Below, in pieces: positions 3,311 to 18,765 of a DNA stretch of 32,000 nucleotides. Under the pieces are notes generated by a model. The model ran no database searches, had not been told where the DNA came from, and saw nothing but the letters and a program-made list of their open reading frames with translations. Source of the DNA: an uncultured Actinomycetes bacterium (GTDB lineage Bacteria; Actinomycetota; Actinomycetes; S36-B12; CAIYMF01); NCBI GenBank assembly GCA_963843975.1, contig CAWJMG010000003.1, forward strand, positions 450,001-482,000. Reading direction: 5' to 3'. Positions within the stretch are counted from its first letter, which is position 1; every line of letters starts with the position of its first letter. The position numbers were made by a program, and so were the translations under genes.

Positions 3311-4252
3311 TCACGGGCGGGCGCCGACGCGCCCGACGACGCGGGCGGCGGCCCGGTTGCCGCGCCCGAGCGCGGTCTCGAGGTCGACGCCGTCGCACCA
3401 GGCGGGCAGGAACCCGGCGGCGAACGCGTCGCCGGCGCCGGTCGTGTCGACGACGTCGACGGGGACCGCCGCGGCGTACGCCTCGCCCTGCTCCTGGTCG
3501 ACCGCGACAGCGCCGCGGGCACCGAGCTTCACGACGACGGTGGCGGCCGTGCCCGCGAGGATCCGGGCGGCCTGGCGGGCCGCCTCGAGCGCGGTGTCGA
3601 GGTCCTCGTCGTCCGCGGGCGCCGGCAGACCGGCGAGGAGGGCGGCCTCCTCCTCGTTGGCGAGCAGCACGTCGACGCCGGACACCCACGAGAGGAACCG
3701 CGCGGCACCCGTGTCGGCCAGAGGGCCGACCGACGCGACGTCGATGCTGGTCGTCATCCCGCGCAGGCGCGCGCGGTCGAGCGCCGACAGCCCGGCCATG
3801 CGGCTGCTGTCGACCATGAGCATGTAGCCCGACAGGTGCAGGTGCCGGCCGGCGGCGAACAGGTCGTCGGCGAGGTCCTGCGGAGTGAGCGCCTCGTTGG
3901 CACCCGGGTCTGGCACCATCGTGCGCTCGCCGTCCGGCATCACGAGGACGATGCACGTCCCCGTCGGGCGGACCGGGTCGAGGGCGAGGGCGCACTCGAC
4001 GCCGCACTCCTCGAGCTCCATCCGTCCGGCCCGGCCGAGCAGGTCGTCGCCGATGCGGCCGGCGAACGTCGTGGGGTTGCCGTCGTGCGCGAGCCAGGCC
4101 GCGGTGTTGGCCGCGGCACCTCCGCCCATCACCCGCACGTCGGCGGGCGTGTCGGTGCCCTCGCGCAACGGGCCCGGGAGCGAGGCGACGACGTCGGTCA
4201 TGTACTGCCCGACCGAGACGAACCGCCGGTCGGGGTGCGGCGCGCGGGTCAT
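3311..4252 (-). CDS. psuK: PfkB-family carbohydrate kinase, probable pseudouridine kinase
   Basis: This is the last 313 aa of the artefactual 1500-aa ORF. It has the MGGGAANTA and [13 protein letters not shown] (PfkB signature 2) motifs. ATG at 4252 overlaps the psuG stop (ATGA at 4249-4252), implying a coupled operon. Confidence 0.72.
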
Positions 4253-5151
4253 GCCGAGGCGGCGACGGCGATCGCGGCCGCGAGCACCGCGTTGCTGCGG
4301 ACGAGGGCGACGTTGACCTCGAGGCTGCGGCCCTTGGTCGCCGTGTGGAAGAACTCGAGCAGGAACGGCGTGACGTCCTTGCCGCGCACGCCCGCCTGGT
4401 CGGCCGCGGCCAGGCCCGCCGTGAGGGTGCTGTCGTGCAGCGAGCGGTCGAGCTCGTCCTCCGGAGCGACCGGGTTGCAGACGATGAGGCCGGCATCGCA
4501 CTCGAGCGCCGACCGCGCGTGCATGACGGCTGCGACCTCGGCCGGGTCGTCGACCCGCCAGTCCAACGAGAAGCCCGAGTCGGCGAGGTAGAATCCGGGG
4601 AAGCGGTCGGTGCGGTAGCCGAGCACAGGGATGTTGAGGGTCTCGAGCCGCTCGAGGGTCGCGGAGACGTCGAGGATCGACTTCACGCCCGCGCAGACCA
4701 CGGTGACCGGCGTGCTCGACAGCGTGGTGAGGTCGGCCGACTCGTCCCACGTCTCGCGGGCCCCCCGGTGCACCCCGCCGAGTCCGCCGGTGGCGAAGAC
4801 CCGGATGCCGGCGAGGCTGGCGAGGTGCGACGTCGCGGCCACGGTGGTGGCGCCGTTGCCGGACTTGGCCACCAGGGTGCCGAGGTCGCGGACGCTGACC
4901 TTCACGACCGAGTCGTCCTCGGCGACCGTGCGCAGCGCGTCGTCGTCCAGCCCGATGCGGGGGATGCCGTCGACGACGGCGATGGTGGCGGGGACGGCGC
5001 CGCCGGAGCGGACCGAGTCCTCGATCTCGCGGGCCACGCGCAGGTTGTCGGGGCGCGGGAGGCCGTGGCTGATGATCGTGGACTCGAGCGCGACGACCGG
5101 TCGGCCGGCCTCGAGGGCCTCGGCGACCTCGGGGTGGATCTGCAGGTGCAT
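4249..5151 (-). CDS. psuG: Pseudouridine-5'-phosphate glycosidase
   Basis: 300-aa ORF with [26 protein letters not shown] and [11 protein letters not shown] motifs typical of PsuG/YeiN. Confidence 0.9.
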
Positions 5152-5182
5152 GGATGAAAGGTAACGGCCCAGGCCGGGGCGC

Positions 5183-5188
5183 TACGTT
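5183..5188 (+). promoter_or_regulatory. Candidate -10 box (TACGTT) for a leaderless transcript of the acetyltransferase gene
   Basis: A TANNNT hexamer lies 6 nt upstream of the GTG at 5195, with no Shine-Dalgarno between. It sits in the 43-bp divergent gap shared with psuG. Confidence 0.3.
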
Positions 5189-5194
5189 GGGCCC

Positions 5195-8005
5195 GTGCCG
5201 CAGGACGCCGATCCGACCGCCCCTCCCGAGCACTGGGAGGCAGACGTCGTCCTCCGCGACGGCAGGACCGCGCGGCTCCGGCCGATCCGGCCGAGCGACG
5301 CCGAGCGGCTCGCGGACTTCCACCGGTCGCTGTCGGAGGAGACGGTCTACTACCGTTTCTTCGCGCCGTACCCCGAGCTGACCGAGCGCGACCTCACCCG
5401 GTTCACCACCGTCGACCACGACGACCGGGTGGCGTTCGTCGCCATGACGGGCGACGACATCATCGGCGTGGGCCGCTACGACCGAGTCGACGAGCGGGAC
5501 GCCGAGGTCGCCTTCGTCATCCGCGACGCCCACCAGGGACGCGGCCTCGGGTCGGTCCTGCTCGAGCACCTCGCGGCGGCAGCACGCGAGCGCGGCGTAC
5601 GGCGGTTCGTGGCCGAGGTGCTGCCGACGAACCGGCGGATGCTCTCGACCTTCGAGGACGCGGGCTACCACCCGTCGCACAAGATGGAGGACGGCGTCGT
5701 CTCGCTGGCCTTCGACCTCGAGCCGACGGAGTCGTCGGTGGCCGTGCGCCTGGCGCGCGAGCACCGCGCGGAGTCGCGCAGCGTGGCAGCGCTCGTGGCA
5801 CCGGAGTCGGTGGTCGTCGTCGGCGCGGGCCGTGACCCGAAGTCGCTCGGCAACCGCGTGCTGCGGCACCTGCTCGAGGGCGGCTACACCGGCCGGCTCT
5901 CCGCGGTGAACCGGGCTGCGGCCGAGGAGGGCGTGAACGTCCTCGACGTGCCGACGTACGCGTCGGTCAGTGCGATCCCCGAGCCGGTCACGCTCGCGGT
6001 CCTCGCCGTGCCGCACGACGAGGTGGACGCCGTCGTCGACGACTGCGCCGCCGCCCGGGTGCGCGGCCTGGTCGTCGTGGCGTCCGGCTACTCCGAGAGC
6101 GGCCCGGACGGCGTCGCCCGGCAGCGGGCGCTCGTGCGCAAGGCACGCGGCAACGGGATGCGCGTGATCGGGCCGAACGCGCTCGGCATCGTCAACACCG
6201 ATCCCGCCGTGTCGCTGAACGCGTCGCTCGCGCCGAGGCTCCCGGGCAACGCGCCCATCGGCTTCTTCAGCCAGAGCGGGTCGCTCGGCGGCACGATCCT
6301 CGCGCGAGCGGTGCGCCGCGGGCTCGGCGTCTCGACCTTCGTCTCGGCCGGCAACCGCGCCGACGTCAGCGGCAACGACCTGCTGCAGTACTGGGAGGAC
6401 GACGAGCAGACCTCGGTCGTGCTGCTGTACCTCGAGAGCGTCGGCAACCCGCGCAAGTTCACGCGCATCGCGCGAAGGCTCTCGCGCACCAAGCCGGTCG
6501 TCGCGATGCGCACCGGCCGCTCGACGCAGGCGTACCCGATCGGCCACGCGATCCGGCGTACGACGCTGCCGGTCGCGGCAGTCGACTCGATGTTCGCTCA
6601 GGCCGGCATCGTCGAGGTCGAGTCGCTCGGCGAGATGTTCGACGTCGCCGGACTCCTTGCGTACCAGCCTCTTCCCGCTGGGCGCCGTGTCGCGATCGTG
6701 GGCAACTCCGACGCGCTCGCGGTGCTCGCCGCCGACGCGTGCGAGAGCGCCGAGCTCGACGTCGTCGGGCCGCCGACCACCCTGCGCTCGGACTGCACGC
6801 CGCAGGACCTCGCCCGCGCGCTCGCCGCGGTGCTCGACGACCCGGCCGTCGACTCCGTCGTGGTGTCGCACGTGCCGACCCTCGGCCACGATGGCCGGGC
6901 CTGGGAGCTCGTCGTCGCCGAGACCGTGGTGCGCGGCGCGAAGCCGGTGGTCGCGGTGCTCGTTGCCGCCGAGGAGGAGAGCGGCCTGCTCGCCGCCCCG
7001 GACGCGACCGCCGACCTCCCGATGCCCGAGCACGGGTCGGTGCCGTTCTACGGCACGGTCGAGGACGCCGTCCGCGCGCTGCGCCGCGTGACGCGGTACG
7101 CCGAGTGGCGGGCGCGGCCGCTGGGCGACCTGCCGGAGTTCTCCGACATCGACCAGAAGGCCGCGCAGGCGATCATCGGCCGGCTCATGGGCGAGGAGCT
7201 CGAGGAGGCCGACGCGACGCCCGGGCTCACCGGCCGCGGCCGCGCCGGGCACGGGCCCGGTGCCACCACCGACACCTCCCACGTGGACGCCGACGCCGAC
7301 GTGCTCGTGCTGTACGCCGAGGACGCCGACGACGACCTCACGCTGCTGCTGGAGAAGTACGGCATCCCGGTGTGGCCGGTCGTGCGTGTCACGTCGCCCG
7401 AGCAGGCCGTGGAGGTGGCCGACCGCATCGGCTACCCGGTGGTGCTGAAGACCCTCGACCCGCGGTTCGCCTCGCGCACCGACCTCGGCGGCCTGCGCCT
7501 GAACCTCGAGAACGAGCGCGCGGTGCGCACGGCCTTCCGCTCGATGTCCGAGAGCCTCGATCCGGACGCGGCCGACCGCCTCGTGCTCCAGCACATGTCG
7601 ACGCCGGGCGTCGCGTGCGTGGTCGGCTCGACCGAGGACCCGCTCTTCGGCCCGGTGGTCTCGTTCGGGCTCGCCGGCATGGTGCCCGAGCTGCTCGGCG
7701 ACCGCGGCTACCGCATCCCGCCGCTGACCGACACCGACGCCCACGACCTCGTCGACGCCCCCGGCGCCTCGCCGATGCTCAACGGGATCGGCGGCACCGA
7801 GCCCGTCGACCACGCCGCGATCGAGGACCTGCTGCTGCGCGTCGGGCAGCTCGCGGACGACGTCCCCGAGCTCGGCGACCTGCGGCTCGAGCCCGTCGTC
7901 GTCGCGGAGGAGGGGCTCGCCGTGCTGGGGGCCCGGGCCGTTCTGCGTCGGCCTCAGGCACGGTCGGACGCCGAGGCCCGACGGCTCGGCGTCGGCGAGC
8001 TGTAG
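5195..8005 (+). CDS. Bifunctional GNAT acetyltransferase / NDP-forming acyl-CoA synthetase-like protein (actinobacterial PatA-type protein lysine acetyltransferase)
   Basis: 936 aa. The N-terminal GNAT carries HQGRGLGSVLLEHL. A CoA-binding domain follows (VVVVGAGRDPKSLGNRVLRHL), then a succinyl-CoA-ligase-like flavodoxin domain and a C-terminal ATP-grasp-like region (GYPVVLKTLDP). Confidence 0.85.
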   Translation: MPQDADPTAPPEHWEADVVLRDGRTARLRPIRPSDAERLADFHRSLSEETVYYRFFAPYPELTERDLTRFTTVDHDDRVAFVAMTGDDIIGVGRYDRVDERDAEVAFVIRDAHQGRGLGSVLLEHLAAAARERGVRRFVAEVLPTNRRMLSTFEDAGYHPSHKMEDGVVSLAFDLEPTESSVAVRLAREHRAESRSVAALVAPESVVVVGAGRDPKSLGNRVLRHLLEGGYTGRLSAVNRAAAEEGVNVLDVPTYASVSAIPEPVTLAVLAVPHDEVDAVVDDCAAARVRGLVVVASGYSESGPDGVARQRALVRKARGNGMRVIGPNALGIVNTDPAVSLNASLAPRLPGNAPIGFFSQSGSLGGTILARAVRRGLGVSTFVSAGNRADVSGNDLLQYWEDDEQTSVVLLYLESVGNPRKFTRIARRLSRTKPVVAMRTGRSTQAYPIGHAIRRTTLPVAAVDSMFAQAGIVEVESLGEMFDVAGLLAYQPLPAGRRVAIVGNSDALAVLAADACESAELDVVGPPTTLRSDCTPQDLARALAAVLDDPAVDSVVVSHVPTLGHDGRAWELVVAETVVRGAKPVVAVLVAAEEESGLLAAPDATADLPMPEHGSVPFYGTVEDAVRALRRVTRYAEWRARPLGDLPEFSDIDQKAAQAIIGRLMGEELEEADATPGLTGRGRAGHGPGATTDTSHVDADADVLVLYAEDADDDLTLLLEKYGIPVWPVVRVTSPEQAVEVADRIGYPVVLKTLDPRFASRTDLGGLRLNLENERAVRTAFRSMSESLDPDAADRLVLQHMSTPGVACVVGSTEDPLFGPVVSFGLAGMVPELLGDRGYRIPPLTDTDAHDLVDAPGASPMLNGIGGTEPVDHAAIEDLLLRVGQLADDVPELGDLRLEPVVVAEEGLAVLGARAVLRRPQARSDAEARRLGVGEL

Positions 8006-8077
8006 CGCGCTCCGGCGTCGTCCGGTCGGGCGCTAACCCGTTCGCCCGCTGTGGGTGGTGGGTGGTGTGATCGACGC

Positions 8078-9385
8078 ATGTCCTCCGAGCCCACCGCCAG
8101 CGGCACCGCTGCGCCCGAGGGCTCCCTGCGCGAGGTGATGACCCCCGGCCTGAAGCGGATGCTCATCGGCATCGCGTCCTCGAGCATCGGCGGCGGCCTG
8201 GTGCTGTCGCTCCTCGTGGTCTACCTGCACAAGGTCCGGGGCATCGAGCTGAGCACGGCGGGCTTCGTCCTGGCCTTTCAGGCCGTGCTCGGCCTCGTCT
8301 TCTCCCCGCTGGTCGGCTACCTGGTCGACCGGATCGGCCCGAAGCCGGTGCTCCTGGTGGCCTGCGTGGTCGAGACGGTCGGCACGGTGATGCTCGGCTT
8401 CGTCGGGTCGGTGCCGGCGGCGTTCTTCGCCGCGGGCGTCGTGGCGATCGGCAACGCCGGCCTGTGGTCACCGCAGGCGGCGATCCTGTCGCGTCTGGCT
8501 CCGCCCGAGCACCGCCAGCGGGTCTTCGGCCTGCAGTTCATGCTGCTCAACCTCGGGCTCGGGATCGGCGGGCTCATCGGTGCGGCGTTCCTCGACGTCG
8601 ACCACCCGCAGACCTTCACGATCCTGTACGCCGCCAACGCGCTCACCTTCCTCGGCTACTTCGTGGCCGTCGCCGGCGTGCGGGGCGTCTCCGGGCCCGA
8701 GGTGCACGAGCCGGACGACGGCGACGGCCCGGGCGGCTACCTCGAGGTGCTCGGCGACCGCCGGATGCGTCGCTACCTCATCGGCGCGCTGCTCCTGCTC
8801 ACCTGCGGCTACGGCTCGATGGAGGCCGGCATCCCGGTCTTCATCACGACCGTCGCGGACCTCCCGGTCAACATGATCGGCGTGGTCTTCTTCTTCAACA
8901 CCGTCGTGATCGTGGTGGCGCAGGTGTGGGTGCTGCGCCGGATCGACGGGCACTCCCGGTCGCGCATGATGGCGCTCGCCGCCGTGGCCTGGGGCGCGTG
9001 CTGGGTGCTCCTCGCCGCGTCGTCGGTGTTCGGCCAGGTCGTGGCGGCGGTCGTCATCACGATCGGCGTGAGCGTGTTCGCGCTGGGGGAGACCATCTGG
9101 TCGCCCGTCGCCCCCTCGCTCATCAACGACCTGGCGCCGGGTCACCTGCGCGGCCGCTACAACGCCGCGGGCGGCCTCGTCTGGGGTGTCGCGGGTGCGG
9201 CGGGCCCGGCGTTCGCCGGCGCCGTCCTCGGGAGCGGGCTCGGCGTCGTGTGGGCCCTCGCGCTGGCCGTCGGCGCCGGTGCCGCCGGTCTGGTGCTGCT
9301 GTCCCTGCGCCACCTGCTGACCGACGCCGAGGACGGCCGGGCCGGGGCTCGGATGACCGACGGCGTCGCCGAGGTGCGAGGATGA
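8078..9385 (+). CDS. MFS transporter
   Basis: About 12 hydrophobic segments with MFS-like loops (DRIGPKP, HLRGRYNAA). ATG at 8078 is preferred over the GTG at 8051 that begins the track ORF. Confidence 0.8.
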   Translation: MSSEPTASGTAAPEGSLREVMTPGLKRMLIGIASSSIGGGLVLSLLVVYLHKVRGIELSTAGFVLAFQAVLGLVFSPLVGYLVDRIGPKPVLLVACVVETVGTVMLGFVGSVPAAFFAAGVVAIGNAGLWSPQAAILSRLAPPEHRQRVFGLQFMLLNLGLGIGGLIGAAFLDVDHPQTFTILYAANALTFLGYFVAVAGVRGVSGPEVHEPDDGDGPGGYLEVLGDRRMRRYLIGALLLLTCGYGSMEAGIPVFITTVADLPVNMIGVVFFFNTVVIVVAQVWVLRRIDGHSRSRMMALAAVAWGACWVLLAASSVFGQVVAAVVITIGVSVFALGETIWSPVAPSLINDLAPGHLRGRYNAAGGLVWGVAGAAGPAFAGAVLGSGLGVVWALALAVGAGAAGLVLLSLRHLLTDAEDGRAGARMTDGVAEVRG

Positions 9386-9978
9386 CGCCATGTCGAACGA
9401 CGCCACCCTCGCTCCGCGCCTGCGCGCCGACATCGAGCGCAGCGGCTACTACCCGGAAGCTCGTGAGCGACACGCTCGACACTGCGCTCGCCACCGAGCC
9501 GGTGGTCGCGTACGTCGTCCACCACGAGGCGACGTTCGACCACGACGAGCTGCGCCGCCACGTCACGGTGCTGGCCCTCACGCCGACTCGCCTCATCGTC
9601 GGCCACACGGACGAGCACCCGGCCGACGAGACCTCCGAGAAGGCCTACGCCACCGCCTCGACCGAGGCGGTGCGCATCGAGCGCATCGACTCCGTCGTCG
9701 TCACTCGGGTGGCCGCCGACGCCGCCAAGCACAAGAAGGGCGCCCCGGTCCGCGAGGTCGTCCTCACGATCGGGTGGGGCGCGGTCAGCCGCATCGACCT
9801 CGAGCCGGCCTCCTGCGGCGACCCGGACTGCGACGCCGACCACGGCTACACGGGTACGGCGTCCAACGACGACCTCGCCCTGCGCGTGTCCGAGGCCGCC
9901 GACGGCGCCCCGGTCGTGCAGCAGACGCTGGAGTTCGCCGCGGCCCTGTCGCTGGCCACCGCGCACCGCAACCGCTGA
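9382..9978 (+). CDS. DUF5998-like conserved actinobacterial protein, apparently frameshifted near its 5' end
   Basis: The body (KLVSDTLDTALATEPVVAYVVHHEATFDHDELRRHVTVLALTPTRLIVGH...) is in the frame of ATG 9382. The protein-like N-terminus MSNDATLAPRLRADIERSGYYPE is in the frame of ATG 9390. The two join cleanly if one A of GAAG (9456-9459) is removed. The family name is from memory. Confidence 0.6.
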   Translation: MTPCRTTPPSLRACAPTSSAAATTRKLVSDTLDTALATEPVVAYVVHHEATFDHDELRRHVTVLALTPTRLIVGHTDEHPADETSEKAYATASTEAVRIERIDSVVVTRVAADAAKHKKGAPVREVVLTIGWGAVSRIDLEPASCGDPDCDADHGYTGTASNDDLALRVSEAADGAPVVQQTLEFAAALSLATAHRNR

Positions 9979-10117
9979 GGCGGATCCGCACCTGATGGGG
10001 GTGTCCCGTCCCGCCCGGCGGGGAGGGCAGGGATACTGGTCGCCTTCCCCGAGCACGACGTCCGATCCCTGTCCGGCCACCGCCCGCCGCGGTGTCCGCC
10101 CGTGCCCGAGGAGCCGC

Positions 10118-10774
10118 ATGGCCGAGCTGGTCTTCTTCTCCGGGACCATGGACTGCGGCAAGTCCACGCTGGCCCTGCAGACCGACCACAACCACGCCGC
10201 CCGCGGGCGCGCGGGGATCGTGTTCAGCCGCCTCGACCGCGCCGGCGAGGACACGCTCTCGAGCCGCCTCGGGCTCAAGGTGCCCGCCGTCGAGGTGTCG
10301 GCCGAGACCGACTTCTGGCAGCACGTGACCGACGTGCTCGCCTCCGGCGGCCGCGTCGACTACCTCATCTGCGACGAGGCCCAGTTCTACGAGCGCGAGC
10401 AGGTCGACCAGCTCGCCCGCATCGTCGACGAGCTCTCGATCGACGTCTTCGCCTTCGGGATCCTCACCGACTTCCGCACCGAGCTCTTCCCTGGCTCGCG
10501 GCGGCTCACCGAGCTCGCCGACAAGGTGCAGGTGCTGCAGGTCGAGGCGCTCTGCTGGTGCGGACGCCGGGCCACCCACAACGCCCGCACGGTCAACGGC
10601 GTCATGGTGGTCGAGGGCGACCAGGTCGTCGTCGGCGACACGTTCAGCGCCGACGTCGTGGCCTACGAGGTGCTCTGCCGCCGGCACCACACCCGCCGGA
10701 TGACGGCGGCCACCTCGATGCACGCGCACATGAGCCCGACGCCGCTGCCGTTCGACGAGCCCGCCCGCGCATGA
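10118..10774 (+). CDS. tdk: Thymidine kinase
   Basis: ATG at 10118 follows GAGGAG. P-loop FFSGTMDCGKST, DEAQF motif and a Cys pair (CWCGRRATHNAR) are present. The upstream part of the track ORF is junk. Confidence 0.9.
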   Translation: MAELVFFSGTMDCGKSTLALQTDHNHAARGRAGIVFSRLDRAGEDTLSSRLGLKVPAVEVSAETDFWQHVTDVLASGGRVDYLICDEAQFYEREQVDQLARIVDELSIDVFAFGILTDFRTELFPGSRRLTELADKVQVLQVEALCWCGRRATHNARTVNGVMVVEGDQVVVGDTFSADVVAYEVLCRRHHTRRMTAATSMHAHMSPTPLPFDEPARA

Positions 10775-11625
10775 CCTTCCTGGTCGACGCCGTGTCGCTT
10801 GCGGTCGAGCTCGGCTCGGACCGACCGCCCGTGGTGCTCGACACCCGCTGGAGCCACGCCGGTCCGCCCGGGCGCTCGGTGCACGCCCAGGGGCACGTGC
10901 CGGGCGCGGTCTTCGTCGACCTCGATGTTGATCTCGCTGCCCCGCCTGGTGCGGGTGGGCGCCACCCGCTGCCCGACCCTTCGTCGTTCGCTGCCGCGAT
11001 GCGCCGGGCCGGCGTCACGCTCGACCGGCCGGTCGTGGTGATGGACGGCCGCGAGGGGTCGCAGGCCGCGCGGATGTGGTGGCTGCTGCGGCACCACGGC
11101 CACGACGACGTCCGGCTCCTCGACGGCGGCCTCGCCGCGTGGGCCGCGGCCGGGGGAGAGGTCGCGACCGGTGACGCGGGTGCGCCGTACGGCGACGACG
11201 GCCCGGTCGGCGGTGTGCGCTTCACGGCCTCGGTCGCGCGGCTGCCTCTGCTGGATGCTTCTGGCGCTGCGGAGGTCGCGCGCGACGGCGTGCTGCTCGA
11301 CGCCCGCGCAGAGGAGCGCTACCTCGGCCAGACCGAGCCGATCGATCCCGTGGCGGGCCATATCCCCGGCGCGGTGACGATGCCGACGCTCGACCTCGTC
11401 GACGAGGACGGCCGCTTCCTCGAGCCCGACATCCTGCGGGTGCTGTTCGCCGGCGTCGACGCACGGCCGGGCTCGCTGGTCGGCGTCTACTGCGGGTCGG
11501 GCGTGACGGCGTCGCACGACGTGCTGGCGCTGGCCGAGGCCGGCATCGACGCCGCCCTCTACGCCGGCTCCTGGTCCGAGTGGATCACCGACCCGACCCG
11601 CCCGATCGCCACGACCGATCGCTAG
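10771..11625 (+). CDS. sseA: Two-domain rhodanese sulfurtransferase (3-mercaptopyruvate sulfurtransferase-type active-site loop)
   Basis: ATG at 10771 overlaps the tdk stop (ATGA). Tandem rhodanese domains are present, with active-site loop YCGSGVTASH (CGSGVTA type rather than CRKGVTA). Confidence 0.8.
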   Translation: MTFLVDAVSLAVELGSDRPPVVLDTRWSHAGPPGRSVHAQGHVPGAVFVDLDVDLAAPPGAGGRHPLPDPSSFAAAMRRAGVTLDRPVVVMDGREGSQAARMWWLLRHHGHDDVRLLDGGLAAWAAAGGEVATGDAGAPYGDDGPVGGVRFTASVARLPLLDASGAAEVARDGVLLDARAEERYLGQTEPIDPVAGHIPGAVTMPTLDLVDEDGRFLEPDILRVLFAGVDARPGSLVGVYCGSGVTASHDVLALAEAGIDAALYAGSWSEWITDPTRPIATTDR

Positions 11626-11710
11626 CCCGACCCGGCTCGTCATGGCGGGTCGTGCCCCAACCCGCCCCGTATCCGGCAATAGGCATCGCATTGTCGGGCA
11701 GGATGCGGGG

Positions 11711-12325
11711 GTGCCGACCTTCGACATCGACGACCCTGACCCAGGTCCCGATCTTCGCCTGGCGTTGGGGGGCCCGGTCACCATGTTCTTCCGTGCGTCT
11801 GTGCTCGAGGAGACCCAGGAGTGGCTAGCGGCTCACGGGTACGACGTCGTAACCGTCGATGCTGAAGCGTGGGTTTCACCGGGCGACATGCAGGACGCGA
11901 TGGCCATGGCTCTTAGCTTCCCGGACTACTACGGGCGGAATCTTGACGCCCTCAATGACTGCCTCAGCGACGTTGCCGCCGGTGCCTATGGCACCACGGA
12001 GTCGGCGACGGGACTTGTGCTGGTCATCCTTCGCTTCGACGCCTTCGCTCATCGGGAGCCAGTGGTCGCCCACGCTCTCTGCGACATCTTCGCCACCCAG
12101 GCCCGAGGCGCTGCCCTCTTCGGACGCCGCATGATGTGCCTGCTGCAAAGCGATGATCCGCGTTTGACCATCCCACCGGTCGGAAGCTTCGCCGGTTCTC
12201 TGGAACCCCGCCGAGTGGCTGGACTCGAAGCGGACATAGCGAGCGGATGTGCCGTTAGCGATCGCATCGGGCAGTCGGGTTTTCGGGCCGTGACTGTCCA
12301 CAGGTTGTGGACGACGGATCGCTGA
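11711..12325 (+). CDS. Barstar-family (ribonuclease inhibitor) protein with N- and C-terminal extensions
   Basis: ALSFPDYYGRNLDALNDCLSD aligns by eye with the barstar core LPEYYGENLDALWDCLTG, followed by GLVLVILRFDAF. The start is ambiguous (ATG 11642, GTG 11711, ATG 11783). Many codons end in A/T, unlike neighbouring genes. Confidence 0.6.
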   Translation: MPTFDIDDPDPGPDLRLALGGPVTMFFRASVLEETQEWLAAHGYDVVTVDAEAWVSPGDMQDAMAMALSFPDYYGRNLDALNDCLSDVAAGAYGTTESATGLVLVILRFDAFAHREPVVAHALCDIFATQARGAALFGRRMMCLLQSDDPRLTIPPVGSFAGSLEPRRVAGLEADIASGCAVSDRIGQSGFRAVTVHRLWTTDR

Positions 12326-12371
12326 AAGTCGTTGGGATTGCTCAGGTTTCGGCGTTGTCGGGGGTTGCGGA

Positions 12372-12377
12372 TAGATT
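12372..12377 (+). promoter_or_regulatory. Candidate -10 box (TAGATT) for a leaderless DUF222-HNH transcript
   Basis: A TANNNT hexamer in an AT-rich patch lies 7 nt upstream of ATG 12385, with no SD. Confidence 0.3.
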
Positions 12378-12384
12378 CATACAC

Positions 12385-14011
12385 ATGTACGATGCTGGCA
12401 TGCCCACTCACGACGCCACGCCGCAGGTCTGCGACCTGTCGGGTGCGTCGCTGGGCGAGGTCGCCGGGTTCCTCGACGCGTGCGCGCACCGCATCGGTGA
12501 GCTGGTGGAGTCGGGTGCGCATCGTGAGCTGGACGGTGCTTCGCAGGTCGGCCTGGTCCGTGAGCTGAACCGTGCGGCGGGTGTGGCCGAGGCTGCGCAG
12601 GCGGTGGTCGGCCTGGCGTCGCACCGGTCCGGGGAGCTGCGGCAGGAGGGCTACTTCTCGGTCAAGGGTCTGCTGGCCGACGGGGTGGGGGTGTCGGGGG
12701 CGCAGGGGTCGCGGGTGTCCAAGCTCGGCACCGGGATGGAGCGCTACCCGCTCATCCGGGTCGGGGTCCTGGCCGGTCGGATCAACCCCGACTCGGCCCG
12801 GGCCGCGTGCGAGGGCATCAACTCCGCGACCTCGGACCTGCGCGGCACGGCCAGGCAGGAAGCCCGCGACCTCGGCGAGGCGATCATGGTCGGGGTGTGC
12901 GAGACCGCCACCACCACCGAGGTGGAGAAGACCGCCGCCGCGTTGATCTTCCGCCTCGACCCCGAGTCCGCCGCCCGCCGCGCCCTCGAAGCACTCGAGA
13001 AGCGGCACGTGAAGGTCGGCACCATCGGCGAGACCGCCGTCGTCCGGATGGTGCTGGACGCGTGGACCGGGGCGCAGCTGGTCACCCTGCTGGAGACCAA
13101 GGTCGACGAGTGGTTCCGCACCGGGTCGCTGCCCGAGCATCTGCAGCCCACCGGCGACGACGACGAGGACACCCGCCGCCGCACCCTCGAACGGCCACGG
13201 CTGCTGGCCGAGGCGTTCGCCGAGGCTCATCGAGGAGATGCTCGGCCTGGCCGGCACCCGCGGCGGGTCCCCGGTCAACGTGACCTTCCTCGGCTCGGGC
13301 GACGTCCACGCCGACGGCGGCGCCGCGGAGATCCTGGTCCCCGGCCGTGAAGCCGTCCCCGTGCCGGCGGAGACGCTCGAGCGCGCGATGTGCGAGGCCG
13401 AGGTCACCGACATCCACATCGTCGGCCTCGTCCCCGACCGCTCGTCCCTGGGGCAGATCGCCCGCTCCGACCGTCGCGTCCGCGAAGCAGCGCAGTGGGT
13501 GCACCCCGGCGACCTCCTCGGCCACGACCACGACCACCACGACACCGACGACGCCAGCCACGCTGACGACGCCGCTCGTGACCACGCCGGCGATCCGCAC
13601 GACCTCACCGGGCAGTGCGCGCACGTCCACTGCGTCGCCCGCCGCCACCGCTTCGCCACCCGCGACCAACGCGCCGCCCTCGCCGCCCGCGACCGGCACT
13701 GCCGGTTCCCCGGCTGCCGCGTCGACCCGTCGCGCTGCCGCGCCCACCACATCCGCACCTGGACCCAGGGCGGCGCGACCTGCCTGTCGAACCTGGTGCT
13801 CCTGTGCCAGCGGCACCATGCCCTGGTGCACGAGCTGCGCTGGACCATCCACCCCGACGACACCCTCGACCCCGGCCACCCCGACCGCTGGCGATTCCAC
13901 CCACCCGCCAGCGGCTACGTCGGCAAAGACGGCGCCCTCCTCGCCGAACGCATCAGACGAGGACAACCACCCGAACCACCCGGCTCACCACCCAGACACG
14001 CCGCCGCCTGA
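12385..14011 (+). pseudogene. DUF222 + HNH endonuclease (REP13E12-type) gene split by a frameshift
   Basis: The DUF222-like N-terminal part is in the frame of ORF 12307..13350. The continuation and HNH motif ([45 protein letters not shown]) are in the frame of ORF 13238..14011. Reading ...LLAEAFAE|LIEEMLGLAGTRGG is restored by dropping one G at about 13225. Confidence 0.75.
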
Positions 14012-14097
14012 CCGACACCACCCGCGATCGACCGCCTCGACCCGACGCCGCACCCGGCGCTCGGGTCACAGGCACGTGCACCGGAGGCCTTGTCCCG

Positions 14098-14487
14098 CTA
14101 GTGATCCGGCCGCGCGGGGGTGAGGCGGGCGAAGCCGCCAGAGACCGCCACGTCGCCGCAAGGCACGAGCCAGTCAGGCGTCTCGACCGCGGACACGGCG
14201 TACATCCCGCCGATGTCGACGAAGGGGAGCAGCGCATCCAGCAGCAACGGTCCGGCATCCCCGTCGTCGGAGAGATCCAGGATCGCGCCGCGCGGGCCGC
14301 CGAGCCGCACATGCGTGATGAGCTCGTCGAGCGAGCCGTGCACCATCCGGCGCACGAACTCCGGAAGCACGTCGAGGCCGAGAGTCGACGCAGCAGCAGC
14401 GACGGAGTCGAACGGCACATTGCCAAGGGCGAGCAGCCCCGGGCCATGGCGCGCGGGCATCTCCGTGGTCGTGAGCCAGGAGCTCAC
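14098..14487 (-). CDS. Small hypothetical protein, SUKH/SMI1-KNR4-like (immunity-type fold) by motif order
   Basis: 129-aa ORF whose GTG at 14487 lies 6 nt after the sepH stop. [14 protein letters not shown] and [13 protein letters not shown] resemble the LP-x-x-y-x-x-f and ipfa-x-dggG elements of SMI1/KNR4 domains in the correct order. Noticeably more A/T-ending codons than sepH. Confidence 0.45.
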
Positions 14488-14493
14488 GGCGGG

Positions 14494-15444
14494 TCAGCTC
14501 TCGGGGTCGCGGGCGCCGAACAGGATCTCGTCCCAGCTCGGCACGCTGGCCCGCGGCTTGCTGCCCTTCTCGGCGTCGCCGACCTCGGGCGGGGTCGTCC
14601 GAGCGGCCTTGCGGCGGGCGCGGCGCGACTGGCGGTTCTCCGGGCGCTTGAGGCCGGGGAGCGTGTCATAGAGGTCGTGCAGCGGCGACTCGTCCTCGGG
14701 CTCGATCGGCGGCCGGTCCATGAGGTCGACGACGTCGGCGCTCGGCTCGGTCTCGACGATGGCGGAGAACGCGGCGTCGGGGTCGATCTGCTCGTCGTCC
14801 CAGTGGTCGACGTCGTCGCCGCTCGGGAGGCCCACGAGGAACGGGCGGCCGTCGAGCGGCACCTCCTCGGTGGGGCGGTCGCCGAGCAGCCAGCCGCTGG
14901 CGCTGTCGTCGGCGGAGATGGTGCGGACGCCGTTGTCGTAGATCCAGAGCGCCGCGGTGGCGCCGCCGGCGACGGAGTGGCGCGGCTCCCAGGAGGCGAG
15001 CACCGACCAGGTGCCGTCCTCGCGGCGCCAGGCGTCCCACTCGAGCGTGCTGGCGTCGACGCCGCCGCCCTCGAGTCCGGCGACGACGGTCTCCTCGAGC
15101 GTGGCGGAGGTGCCGGCGGTGCGGAGCTCGGTCTCGCGGGCCTGGGCCGCGAGGTGCTCGCGCTCGGCGAGCACCGGCCCGGCGAAGCGCATGACGCGGT
15201 CGACCGTGAGGCCGGAGGTCGCGGCGATGTCGTCGGGGCTCTGGCCATGGCGCACCCTCATCTGGATGTCGCGCGGCGTCGTGCCGTCGAGGGTGATCTC
15301 GAGCTGCCCGAGGCGGCTCTTGTCGCGGCGCACCGCGGCCTCGAGCCGCTCGTCGCACGGGACGGTGTAGCGGGTGCCGTCGGTGCTGCTGAGGACCAGG
15401 CTGTGACCGTCGTCGCTGAGCCCGACGAACGACAGCTCGCGCAT
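14494..15444 (-). CDS. sepH: Septation protein SepH (DUF3071 family)
   Basis: ATG at 15444 is preceded by AGGAGG. N-terminus [28 protein letters not shown], an HTH-like [21 protein letters not shown], an acidic linker and a basic C-terminus ending ...[13 protein letters not shown] are typical of SepH. Confidence 0.8.
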
Positions 15445-15546
15445 CGGTCCTCCTACCGTCCGGGCGCCCGTCCTGGGCGCTGCCCGGCCAGTCTCGCCCG
15501 AGCAGGCCCTCAGGTCGAGGACCGCCACGCGTGCGCGAGGGTCCGA

Positions 15547-16779
15547 TCAGGCCGGGTCGCCGTGCGCGTCGACGCCGTTGTCGGCATCTGCCCCGTCGAG
15601 CGACCGGCGCAGGTGCGGGGTGCCGAGGACGCCGAGCCCGGCGGCCAGGAGTGCGGAGACCGTCAGCACCCAGTACGCCGTGGACGCGCCGTACCGGTCG
15701 ATGATCGGCCCGGAGATCGAGGTGCCGGTGGCGAAGCCGACGGTCAGGCCGGCCATGACGACCGTCAGACCCTCGGTGAGCCGCTGCGAAGGGACGAGCC
15801 GCTCGACCAGGGCGAAGCCGGTGATCAGGCTGGGTGCGACCGCGAGGCCCGCGACGAGGACGGCCACGCCGAGCAGGACCGGCGAGCCGATGAACGGGAA
15901 CGGCAGGCCGACGAGCGCGACGAGCAACAGGTAGGTGCGGAACTGCGCGGGCAACGGCGTCCGCAGGTGCAGGACGCCGAGCACGAGACCGGCGATGCCG
16001 GAGCCGAGCGCGTAGAGGGCGAGCAGCAGGCCGGTCCAGCCGCGTACGTCGTACTCCGCGGCGAAGGCGACGGTGACGACCTCGTTGGCGCCGAACACGG
16101 CGCCGACGAAGAAGAACACGCCGGCCACCAGTGGCACGCCGGCGTAGCGGGCAGCCGCCTTGCCGCCGATGTGCGAGGACCCGGCCGCGGGCGGCTCGGT
16201 GGCGCGCAGCGGCACGAGCATCACCGTGCCGACGACCATGAGAACGATGCTCGCGCCGATGGCGCCCCAAGTGACGAGCGAGATCGCGAGCAGCGTGGCG
16301 ACCGGGGGGCCGGCCACGAAGACGACCTCGTCGATGACCGATTCGTAGGCGAACGCCGTGCGCACGTCCTGGGGCTCGTCGAGCACGTACGCCCAGCGGG
16401 CACGGGCGAGCGAGCCGAAGTTGGGCACGAACGCCTCGCCGAGGCCGAAGCACACGAACCAGGTCCACACCGGCGCGTCGAGCAGCACCAGCGCGATGAA
16501 GGTCAGCTGGAACACCAGCGCGATCGCGACCACGATCGGGATGACCTTGTGCTGGCTGTACCGGTCGATGTAGCGCGAGACGAACGGCCCGATCAGCGCG
16601 TTGGAGACCGCGCCGACCGCCGACACGCCTCCGGCGACGGCGTACGGCTCGCCCCGCAGCGTGAGGAAGAGCACCACGCCGAGGCCGAGCATCGCCATGG
16701 GGAGGCGTGCGACGAACGCCGCCGAGCTGAACCTGAAGGCGCCGGGGCGGCGCAGCAGGGTCAGGTAGGGCGTGAGCAC
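15547..16779 (-). CDS. MFS transporter
   Basis: 410-aa ORF with GTG start, 12 predicted hydrophobic segments and an MFS-like loop ([11 protein letters not shown]). Confidence 0.8.
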
Positions 16780-16836
16780 CCGGTGACGCTATCGACCGGG
16801 AGTGCGTGCCGACGAATCCGTTGGGAGGATCACGAC

Positions 16837-17925
16837 GTGACCCTCTCCGGCCCGCGCGGCTCGTACGACGCCCTCCTGCTCGTCTCGTTCGGGGGCCCCG
16901 AGGGTCCGGATGACGTCGTCCCCTTCCTGGAGAACGTCACCCGCGGCCGCGGCATCCCGCGCGAGCGGCTCGTCGCGGTGGGCGCGCACTACACCGCCTT
17001 CGGCGGGGTGTCGCCGATCAACCAGCAGAACCGCGACCTGCTCGCAGCGCTGCGCGCGGACCTCGCCGGTGCAGGTGTCGACCTGCCGGTCTACTGGGGC
17101 AACCGCAACTGGGACCCGTACCTCGCCGACGCGCTCCGCGAGATGCGCGCGGACGGCATCACGTCGGCCCTGTGCCTCATGACGAGCGCCTACTCGTCGT
17201 ACTCCGGCTGCAGGCAGTACCGCGAGAACCTCGCCGACGCGGTCTCGGAGGTGGAGGCCGACGGCCTCGGCCCGGCGCCGCACCTGGACAAGCTGCGGCA
17301 CTTCTTCGACCACCCCGGCTTCGTCGAGCCGATGGTCGACTCCGTCGTCGAGTGCGTGCAGAGCCTCGCGGCCGACGGCGTGCTCGCCCCCCGGCTCGTC
17401 TTCACGACGCACTCGATCCCGACGGCGTCGGCCGAGACCTCCGGCCCGGAGGGCGGTGCCTACGTCGCTCAGCATGAGGCGGTCGCCGAGCTCGTGACCC
17501 GCGCGGTCGCCGCCCGCGTGCAGGTGCAGGACGGGTGGGACCTCGTCTACCAGTCGCGGTCCGGCGCGCCGCAGATCCCGTGGCTCGAGCCGGACATCAG
17601 CGATCACCTCGCAGTGCTGAAGGCCGACGGCGTGCCCGGGGTCGTCATCTCGCCGATCGGGTTCGTGAGCGACCACATGGAGGTCGTCTGGGATCTCGAC
17701 ACCCTGGCGCTCGCCGACGCCCGTGAGCTCGGCCTTCCGGCCCTGCGCTCGGCGACAGTCGGCACCGATCCCCGGTTCGTCGCGATGGTGCGCGAGCTCG
17801 TGCTCGAGCGGGTCGGATCTACGCCGGCGCGCGCGGAGTCGCCGCTCGGCCCGATGCACGACGTCTGCCCGGGCACCTGCTGCCCGAACCCGCGCGGCCC
17901 GCGCCCCGCGCTCTGCGAGGTCTGA
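16837..17925 (+). CDS. hemH: Ferrochelatase (coproporphyrin ferrochelatase type) with C-terminal Cys cluster
   Basis: GTG at 16837 follows GGGAGGA. Motifs [18 protein letters not shown] and [14 protein letters not shown] are present, with C-terminus [17 protein letters not shown]. This is the only real part of the 1436-aa track ORF. Confidence 0.9.
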
Positions 17926-17937
17926 CAGGATCGAGGC

Positions 17938-18765
17938 GTGGACATCGAGTACGACCCCCGCCTGCTCGACGAGCTGCACGACATCGCGGTCGCGGCCGCA
18001 CGGCAGGCGGGCGAGCTGGTCCTCGAGGGCCGGCGCGGTCGGATCGACGTCGCCGCCACCAAGTCCAGCGCCACCGACGTCGTCACCGAGATGGACCGCG
18101 CCAGCGAGCGGATGCTGGTCGACCGGATCCTGTCCCAGCGCCCCGACGACGGGATCCTCGGCGAGGAGGGCGCCGACCACATCGGGTCGAGCGGCGTCCG
18201 CTGGGTGCTCGACCCCATCGACGGCACGGTGAACTACCTCTACGGCCTGCCGGAGTGGGCGGTCTCGGTGGCGGCGGAGATCGACGGCATCACCGTGGTC
18301 GGCGTCGTCGAGGCGCCGGCGCTGGGGGAGACGTACGTCGCCACCCAGGGTCGCGGTGCGCGGCTGCACGACAAGCACGGCGTCCACGACCTGCGCGTGA
18401 ACGACCCGGTCACCCTCGAGCAGGCTCTGGTCGCGACCGGCTTCGGCTACCGCGTCGAGCGTCGCGTGGCGCAGGCCCGCGTCGTCGAGCAGGTCGTCCC
18501 GCGCGTGCGCGACATCCGCCGCGGGGGAGCGTGCAGCGTCGACCTCTGCTCGGTCGCCGCCGGCCGCGTCGACGCCTACTACGAGCGCGGTCCCATGGCG
18601 TGGGACCTCGCCGCGGGCGGACTCGTGGCCACCGAGGCCGGTGCCCTGCTCGAGGGCCTCCACGGCAAGGTGGCAGGCGAGGACCTCATCATCGCGGCCG
18701 GCCCGGGCCTCTTCCCGTCCTTGCACGACCTGCTCGCCGACCTCGCCGCCGACAGCGGCGACTGA
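17938..18765 (+). CDS. Inositol monophosphatase family protein
   Basis: 275 aa with motifs GEEG, WVLDPIDGTVNY and WDLAAG. Confidence 0.85.
   Translation: MDIEYDPRLLDELHDIAVAAARQAGELVLEGRRGRIDVAATKSSATDVVTEMDRASERMLVDRILSQRPDDGILGEEGADHIGSSGVRWVLDPIDGTVNYLYGLPEWAVSVAAEIDGITVVGVVEAPALGETYVATQGRGARLHDKHGVHDLRVNDPVTLEQALVATGFGYRVERRVAQARVVEQVVPRVRDIRRGGACSVDLCSVAAGRVDAYYERGPMAWDLAAGGLVATEAGALLEGLHGKVAGEDLIIAAGPGLFPSLHDLLADLAADSGD

Follow-up and report, generated by a model that had tools for sequence, protein, structure and literature searches.

Between the sulfurtransferase gene sseA and sepH, in a 32,000-nt stretch of contig CAWJMG010000003.1 from an uncultured, Longivirga-like actinobacterium (hereafter the window), lies a 2.8-kb islet of three genes. 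These are a barstar-family gene (11711..12239, plus strand), a DUF222-HNH nuclease gene (coding sequence (CDS) at 12400..14011, plus strand) carried on a discrete repeat unit (12294..14077, plus strand), and orf129 (14098..14487, minus strand), a lineage-restricted orphan gene of 129 codons. An earlier note on this DNA, made from the letters alone, had described a compositionally atypical islet in which two immunity-type genes, one barstar-like and one SUKH-like, surround a decayed HNH nuclease gene, and had offered as readings an orphan-immunity cluster, the relic of a nuclease toxin-antitoxin pair, a selfish HNH element or an uncharacterized three-gene module. Comparison with related genomes revealed that the islet is a real strain-specific insertion and a patchwork of three unrelated accessory pieces with separate histories, not one system.

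We delimited the islet (11627..14455) using blastn break points against the empty sseA-sepH site of Longivirga aurantiaca (contig L002) and of more distant relatives; L. aurantiaca and uncultured 'Nanopelagicales' genomes are the nearest relatives of the window. L002 aligns to window positions 3687-11626 and 14456-18763, with ~40 unaligned L002 bases between the two blocks. Its sseA and sepH genes are convergent and 82 nt apart, the islet is absent, and a hairpin occupies the space between them. Among the 46 species loci having both genes, 14 show a spacing of 14-180 nt, all near outgroups (L004, L010, L011 and L014) included, which answers the adjacency check proposed in the earlier note. No terminal inverted repeats, target duplication or junction repeats were found at its ends, Pfam identified no integrase gene in it, and no tRNA or Rfam RNA family matched, so that the integrase, tRNA target and flanking direct repeats of a classical genomic island or integrative element are lacking. 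Promoter, terminator and Rfam scans of the islet, including a generic sigma-70 scan, returned no result.

What fills this site varies among relatives. The closest species-level relative (L001, sepH 94% identical) has an intact 601-codon HNH open reading frame (ORF) at the same place and neither barstar nor orf129; an OsmC-like gene stands on the sepH side of its HNH gene and three unknown genes with low G+C content at third codon positions (GC3, 0.68-0.77) on the other. The latter occupy the slot 5' of the HNH unit (L001 11474-12794), and because they are different low-GC3 genes, the same slot appears to collect different foreign DNA in each genome. Another relative (L003) carries a VOC/glyoxalase-family gene together with an HNH gene at the sepH locus, again with no barstar and no orf129. 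Two contigs whose sepH is 97% identical (L082 and L083) have the order sepH-orf129, and L082, which extends further, also has the HNH gene. Neither barstar nor orf129 was present in any of 80 species-representative loci (0/80). The HNH unit is thus polymorphic for presence and absence at one site in related genomes, and its neighbors differ in every genome. This independent distribution of the three genes speaks against the three-gene module, for which the earlier note had proposed a co-occurrence check.

The HNH unit is a 1.78-kb block common to copies at other loci (blastn), consisting of a leader, the CDS and a tail whose right end lies ~65 nt past the stop codon. Its left end is marked by a perfect palindrome, GTCCACAGGTTGTGGAC (12296..12312, plus strand; arms of 7 nt around 3 nt), which is unique in the window against 0.03 occurrences expected. 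The palindrome is kept in four copies, with the outer pair changed from G..C to A..T in L088, and is a candidate operator or recognition site. The ~90-nt leader that follows is ~90% conserved in the four copies; with a GC content of 55%, it is conserved better than the first codons of the gene. Palindrome and leader together occupy positions 12296-12399 of the window, 11313-11420 of L001 (minus strand), ~5036-5140 of L089 and ~4897-5000 of L088. A promoter-like sequence (TTGCGG, 17 nt, TACGAT; 12365..12399, plus strand) would end 6 nt before the ATG, an arrangement suggestive of leaderless-type expression. A TC(C)ACAGG-like motif is seen at the right end of the unit (~14066-14073).

Copies in L089 (84.6% identity) and L088 (78%) share both unit ends with the window by blastn (12294/12297 to 14074/14077) and sit between the glpK/glpD and DUF805 genes, while the L001 copy at the sepH locus aligns at 85% DNA identity to window positions 12294-13992 only. 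HNH family members also occur at the DUF805 locus in L173 and L174, making this a second locus in four genomes (L088, L089, L173 and L174), and the cargo around the units there varies (DUF6928, GNAT and orphans of 115-156 aa). L089 and L001 derive from the same genome, whose two HNH copies are 86% identical. The source genome of the window, a 2,758,296-nt contig, encodes an intact 541-aa HNH copy (P0204) that is ~98% identical to the repaired window protein when compared by eye, as well as an HNH paralogue at 62% identity (P0145). Homologue searches of the source contig carrying this 98% twin found no second barstar and no second orf129; orf129 therefore does not appear to be an obligatory partner of the HNH gene. 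Because the discrete 1.78-kb unit recurs at two chromosomal loci and is multicopy in the source genome, a selfish HNH element is the best supported of the readings in the earlier note, and we interpret the unit as a chromosomal multicopy selfish-type element of the REP13E12 kind.

Assignment of the nuclease to the DUF222-HNH family, as first proposed, is sound. The Pfam DUF222 model (PF02720) had no direct match to the window protein or its family, but hhalign comparison of a 30-member family profile to proteins containing PF02720 and PF01844 gave a probability of 100% (E = 4e-58) over 361 columns, the N-terminal domain among them. PF01844 matched 30 of 30 family members at E ≤ 0.01 (best, 5e-5); relative to the Pfam HNH cut-off of 21.4 bits, the C-terminal fragment of the window protein scored 22.3 bits and the repaired protein 20.7 bits. 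The HNH/zinc motif CxxxxC...HH...N...CxxHH...H is intact (CRFPGC...AHH...SNL...CQRHHALVH), and the ratio of nonsynonymous to synonymous substitution rates (dN/dS) of 0.12-0.20 indicates purifying selection. Between the DUF222 and HNH domains lies a length-polymorphic His/Asp-rich insert (HDHDHHDTDDASHADD..., 13515-13600), missing in canonical DUF222-HNH proteins, in which indels between copies are multiples of 3. The family was absent from the phage collection and, save for a weak HNH-domain match, from the plasmid collection. PADLOC models matched the HNH protein only weakly and generically, the best being one for a type II restriction enzyme (E = 9e-5). In L011 (5322-6404), a distant DUF222-HNH gene (32-52% identity) separates the MFS gene from sepH, lying on the opposite flank of sepH.

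As deposited, the HNH gene is split into two ORFs (12307/12385-13350 and 13238-14011) by a 1-nt insertion at 13224 (plus strand), where GAGCTS of the intact L001 and L089 genes is read as GAGGCTC; deleting one base restores a protein of 536 aa. Two further genes in the window carry a suspect insertion of a single base. In the barstar gene, AAGCTC is read as AAGCTTC at 12188 (plus strand), which shifts the last 17 codons, and in a core DUF5998 gene (9390-9978) the GGAGCTC of relatives appears as GGAAGCTC at 9457; the repaired DUF5998 product matches Pfam profile positions 1-178 of 179 (E = 5e-75). All three insertions (9457, 12188 and 13224) fall inside AGCT, a motif with 108 sites in the 32 kb, for which we estimate a chance of ~5e-6. 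Such a pattern speaks for motif-linked errors (methylation-type) in the consensus of the source assembly; in nanopore assemblies, errors of this kind at methylation motifs are known to be systematic (PMC6591954). Logan contig L084 (run ERR12037365), assembled independently from the same strain, is identical to the window at 1,860 of 1,861 aligned positions and lacks the extra base at 12188, which restores the family-consensus barstar C-terminus ...PVGSSPVLWNPAEWLDSKRT. Scanning by GC3 phase revealed no other clear frameshift, and neither Logan nor any other source has an intact form of this HNH gene on record for the strain. Given that all three insertions lie in AGCT and that the barstar insertion is absent from the independent assembly, the HNH frameshift is probably an artifact and not decay as the earlier note had it, with consensus errors at AGCT sites as the likeliest source of both this frameshift and the one in barstar.

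Without the extra T near 12188, the barstar-family gene encodes 175 aa; as read, its ORF extends in the shifted frame to 12325. Several lines of evidence confirm the barstar assignment. Pfam PF01337 matched with E = 1.8e-16 (60.3 bits against a gathering cut-off of 23.4, or 61.2 bits for the corrected protein), and phmmer against the Protein Data Bank (PDB) matched Bacillus amyloliquefaciens barstar directly (E = 7e-4), with the YYG..NLDALNDC segment aligned. An AlphaFold model (pLDDT 91.4) compared to PDB with Foldseek had barstar as all 24 of its best matches (E ~5e-6 to 3e-4), with target TM scores of 0.66-0.81 that were ≥0.75 except in one case and 0.76-0.81 for the top matches. Tyr29, Tyr30, Gly31, Asp35 and Asp39 are retained (fpdYYGrnlDalnDcl aligned to barstar 26-41), and the barnase-binding residues Tyr29, Asp35 and Asp39 (DxxxD) are nearly invariant among 51 family members. 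DxxxD is the family signature motif of Imm-barstar, which is reported to be specific for barnase-like toxins (PMC3482391).

The protein belongs to a subfamily of 165 homologues of ~175 aa (barstar-175) that has an additional beta-alpha unit at the N-terminus and, at the C-terminus, the conserved tail PVGxxPVxWNxAEW. The window has no barnase-like RNase gene, and none was found next to subfamily members in 3 genome contexts, 3 plasmids and 80 metagenome loci. The three genome contexts place members beside insertion sequence (IS) and Thoeris genes (on a Xylanimonas chromosome, L085), near an Imm5 gene (the Asanoa homologue) and 2.8 kb from a DUF222-HNH gene. In the 80 metagenome loci, tblastn with barnase, RNase Sa, three DUF222-HNH proteins and orf129 detected no relative within 4 kb, and no Pfam family recurred among the 80 nearest neighbors. 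Members are present on 19 actinobacterial plasmids and were not found on phage; one follows straight after the MobF relaxase gene of a Nocardia plasmid (L170) and another adjoins a NucA/NucB DNase gene on a Streptomyces plasmid (L171). These neighborhoods, together with the IS and Thoeris context, hint at a portable anti-nuclease or anti-defense role. In the window, no gene but barstar occupies the segment from sseA to the HNH unit (11627-12293). Being an orphan characterizes the whole subfamily and does not reflect the loss of a local toxin. Considering the retained fold and residues, the stand-alone subfamily and the barnase specificity of Imm-barstar, the protein would most likely act as an orphan inhibitor whose targets are RNases of the barnase/RNase Sa type, from other cells or from genes elsewhere.

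Base composition sets the left part of the islet apart. While the window has a G+C content of 73% (mean 0.729), the lowest 600-nt interval in the 32 kb falls at 11801-12400 (0.623, z = −4.1), and the low-GC strings quoted in the earlier note are found at 11676-11696 and 12370-12402. Compared to 23 core genes (GC3 0.939±0.022), the barstar gene is strongly atypical (GC3 0.72 as read and 0.77 after frame correction, z = −7.8), orf129 deviates mildly (0.87, z = −3.1) and the HNH gene is not atypical (0.91, z = −1.1). By segment, G+C amounts to 65% at 11627-12293, 55% (0.547) in the 106-nt HNH leader (12294-12399) and a normal 73.5% in the HNH CDS. The anomaly is real and limited to the left quarter of the region, that is, to the barstar segment and the HNH leader; it does not extend to the HNH body and is only mildly apparent in orf129.

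The third gene, orf129, starts 6 nt downstream of the sepH stop codon in all three contigs retrieved (3/3), encodes an acidic protein (pI 4.5) and is probably cotranscribed with sepH. Five homologues were recovered from 5.8 billion clusters (72-84% identity; four of 129 aa and one 90-aa fragment). Its dN/dS of 0.22-0.25 identifies it as a real, protein-coding gene. Relative to L082 and L083, the synonymous divergence (dS) of orf129 is 0.34-0.97 compared to 0.12-0.15 for sepH, a three- to sevenfold excess between genes 6 nt apart, which suggests that orf129 alleles at this edge of the islet have been exchanged or replaced or are evolving fast. The insertion junction falls inside the 5' end of the gene: its first ~11 codons correspond to the ancestral 3' flank of sepH, window positions 14456-14492 being homologous to L002 9033-9069.

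The proposal that 14098-14487 encodes a SUKH-like protein found no profile or fold support. Orf129 itself matched nothing in Pfam (E up to 10), NCBIfam or PADLOC, and with the five homologues included, Pfam returned a single weak and unrelated match (Asparaginase_C, E = 0.096). A PDB profile search likewise gave no support, and a profile search of 1.84 billion representatives recovered only its own cluster. The AlphaFold model, built from 6 sequences, had a pLDDT of 46, and its Foldseek search gave a best E of 1.2 and no SUKH match, with a model too poor to exclude the fold. Orf129 did not match the DUF6928 neighbor of another HNH copy (hhalign probability 0.6%), and all-against-all BLASTP of the small HNH-flanking ORFs across genomes uncovered no relationship.

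The flanks of the islet are core genes. On the left, the SseA-like two-domain rhodanese (10780..11625, plus strand; GC3 0.91) matched Pfam Rhodanese (1.3e-25) and the NCBIfam 3-mercaptopyruvate sulfurtransferase model (9e-36, under that model's cut-off), and is preceded by tdk (9995-10774, plus strand). On the right, sepH (14494..15528, minus strand) matched the NCBIfam SepH equivalog (1.7e-64, 219 bits against a cut-off of 40) and Pfam DUF3071 (6e-50), and is followed by a putative MFS transporter gene, so named from its sequence (15547-16779, minus strand), a relative of which (37-86% identity) adjoins sepH in 60 of the 80 species loci. The remaining genes of the 32-kb window are housekeeping genes. 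It contains no RNase, secretion or delivery gene, in agreement with the earlier note. The defense-finder check proposed there yielded no PADLOC system match and nothing for barstar or orf129.

Among known systems, the HNH unit most resembles the REP13E12/DUF222-HNH repeats of Mycobacterium tuberculosis and other Actinomycetota (PF02720 and PF01844), which occur in several copies, undergo gene conversion, are often divided between two ORFs and 'lack defined biological function' (PMC13061034; PMC10589994). The two share the two-domain architecture (hhalign 100%), several copies per genome at different loci, near-identical paralogues, copies annotated as two ORFs and a function that is not known. 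The subfamily in the window differs in being divergent, confined to Longivirga and 'Nanopelagicales'-type genomes and outside the reach of the PF02720 model, in having a ~80-aa His/Asp-rich insert before the HNH domain, and in not being known as a prophage attachment site; a conserved palindromic left end with leader is described only in the present analysis. Like free-standing HNH homing endonuclease genes, it is an intergenic nuclease gene present or absent at the same site in relatives, with extra copies elsewhere. Unlike those genes, it is not found in a phage, intron or intein, and the likeness would be one of distribution, as distinct from cleavage or flank co-conversion.

The small genes have more limited counterparts. 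The window protein is like barstar/Imm-barstar, the inhibitor of barnase, binase and RNase Sa (PF01337; PDB 1BRS), in its Pfam match, fold and Tyr29-Tyr30-Gly31 and Asp35...Asp39 residues; it is unlike it in being twice as long, in having no paired RNase gene and in belonging to a subfamily that is often plasmid-borne. A toxin-less immunity-type gene that was horizontally acquired and sits in a variable region also recalls orphan immunity genes and acquired interbacterial defense clusters. Here, by contrast, there is a single gene with no array, recombinase or cassette structure, and its protective role is putative; of the orphan-immunity cluster read earlier, the barstar gene alone is left, the second gene having no SUKH support. 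Orf129 resembles SUKH/SMI1-KNR4 proteins only in size (129 aa), acidity and mixed alpha/beta prediction, and differs from them in lacking any sequence, profile or fold match.

Several alternative explanations can be weighed against these observations. Were the three genes one functional unit, either an HNH nuclease toxin with two immunity or antidote proteins or a new defense system, their physical adjacency would be explained, as might the acidity of both small proteins (pI 4.3 and 4.5) and the position of orf129 beside the 3' end of the HNH gene, both in the window and in L082, the sole contig reaching past orf129. However, HNH units occur with neither small gene at the sepH locus (L001 and L003) and at the DUF805 locus (L088, L089, L173 and L174); homologue searches found no second copy of either small gene on the source contig with the 98% twin; no HNH gene lies within 4 kb of barstar-175 in any of the 80 loci (0/80); Imm-barstar is specific for barnase-like RNases (PMC3482391); and no PADLOC system matched. 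Gene distribution largely refutes this reading, which we regard as very improbable. Descent from a polymorphic-toxin or barnase-barstar locus that lost its toxin gene by deletion and kept the immunity genes as orphans is a somewhat more plausible but still unlikely account. Barstar is a classical immunity protein (PMC3482391) and its Asanoa homologue lies near an Imm5 gene, yet neither islet nor window holds a toxin fragment, secretion-associated domain or cassette, barstar-175 stands alone almost everywhere, 11627-12293 holds the barstar gene alone and the other putative immunity gene has no SUKH support.

Vertically inherited core DNA with unusual codon usage would fit the HNH identity to L001, which equals flank identity, but this view is at odds with the empty site in L002, L004, L010, L011, L014 and others, with a barstar GC3 7.8 standard deviations under core genes and with the different cargo of the closest relatives; it is already refuted for barstar and orf129, and we give it almost no credence overall. 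True decay of the islet, with the HNH and barstar genes (and DUF5998) as recent pseudogenes, has the deposited sequence on its side, in which the frameshifts stand and the source annotation has split or extended ORFs (P0154, P0202 and P0205), as well as the split REP13E12 ORF pairs of M. tuberculosis (PMC13061034). It is nonetheless rather doubtful, given that 3/3 insertions fall in AGCT, that one is contradicted by an independent assembly and another strikes a conserved core gene, and that both islet genes are free of other lesions, with a low dN/dS for the HNH gene.

We therefore favor, as probable, the explanation that this Longivirga-like actinobacterium has a hotspot for accessory genes in its sseA-sepH intergenic terminator region, filled by three pieces that were acquired independently, and that the frameshifts are likely consensus errors. 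The first piece would be the DUF222-HNH unit, which has conserved ends and a leader and promoter-like region of its own, is maintained by purifying selection and is homogenized or duplicated within genomes; its persistence would probably stem from nuclease and DNA-binding activity on its own locus, in the style of homing or gene conversion. The second piece would be the barstar gene, imported recently from a lower-GC donor, plausibly via a plasmid, and its product, with the barnase-binding residues kept, would most likely block barnase/RNase Sa-type RNases from competitors or from a distant gene in the same genome. The third would be orf129, a fast-diverging orphan appended to the sepH transcript.

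Some points weigh against this explanation. The HNH unit has no integrase, target duplication or terminal inverted repeats that would point to a mobility mechanism, and the HNH identity between genomes (85%) is about that of the flanks (84-86%), which would fit vertical descent equally with homing. Vertical inheritance with loss in L. aurantiaca may also be compatible with the data: in a comparison of the empty-site sequences, intergenic divergence was too high to decide between loss and repeated gain. Orf129 might interact with the HNH protein, as it adjoins the unit in every contig known to carry it. Within the source genome, the search for an RNase gene covered the 32-kb window, and no second assembly covers the HNH frameshift.

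A more speculative possibility, to which we attach a modest chance, is that action of the HNH nuclease on the conserved palindrome at the end of its locus makes the surrounding intergenic DNA a hotspot of gene capture, with orf129 and a portable anti-RNase barstar-175 as cargo. The basis for this idea is the variable foreign cargo beside the unit at both loci (barstar, OsmC-like, VOC, GNAT, DUF6928 and orphans). If it were true, DUF222-HNH units would be site-specific selfish elements and barstar-175 an anti-toxin or anti-defense factor.

Under comparative analysis, then, the picture of two immunity genes around a dead nuclease dissolves into an ordinary accessory hotspot, and AGCT-linked indel errors in the source assembly emerge as a cause of false pseudogenes, one of them in a core gene. 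The points of interest are the persistence of the DUF222-HNH unit, the variable cargo that accumulates beside such units and the RNase target of barstar-175, here identified as a subfamily of stand-alone, often plasmid-borne barstars of 175 aa. For the DUF222-HNH repeat, the end palindrome, leader, promoter-like region and two insertion loci provide the first defined boundaries outside mycobacteria, and these could help test the function of a very widespread actinobacterial family.

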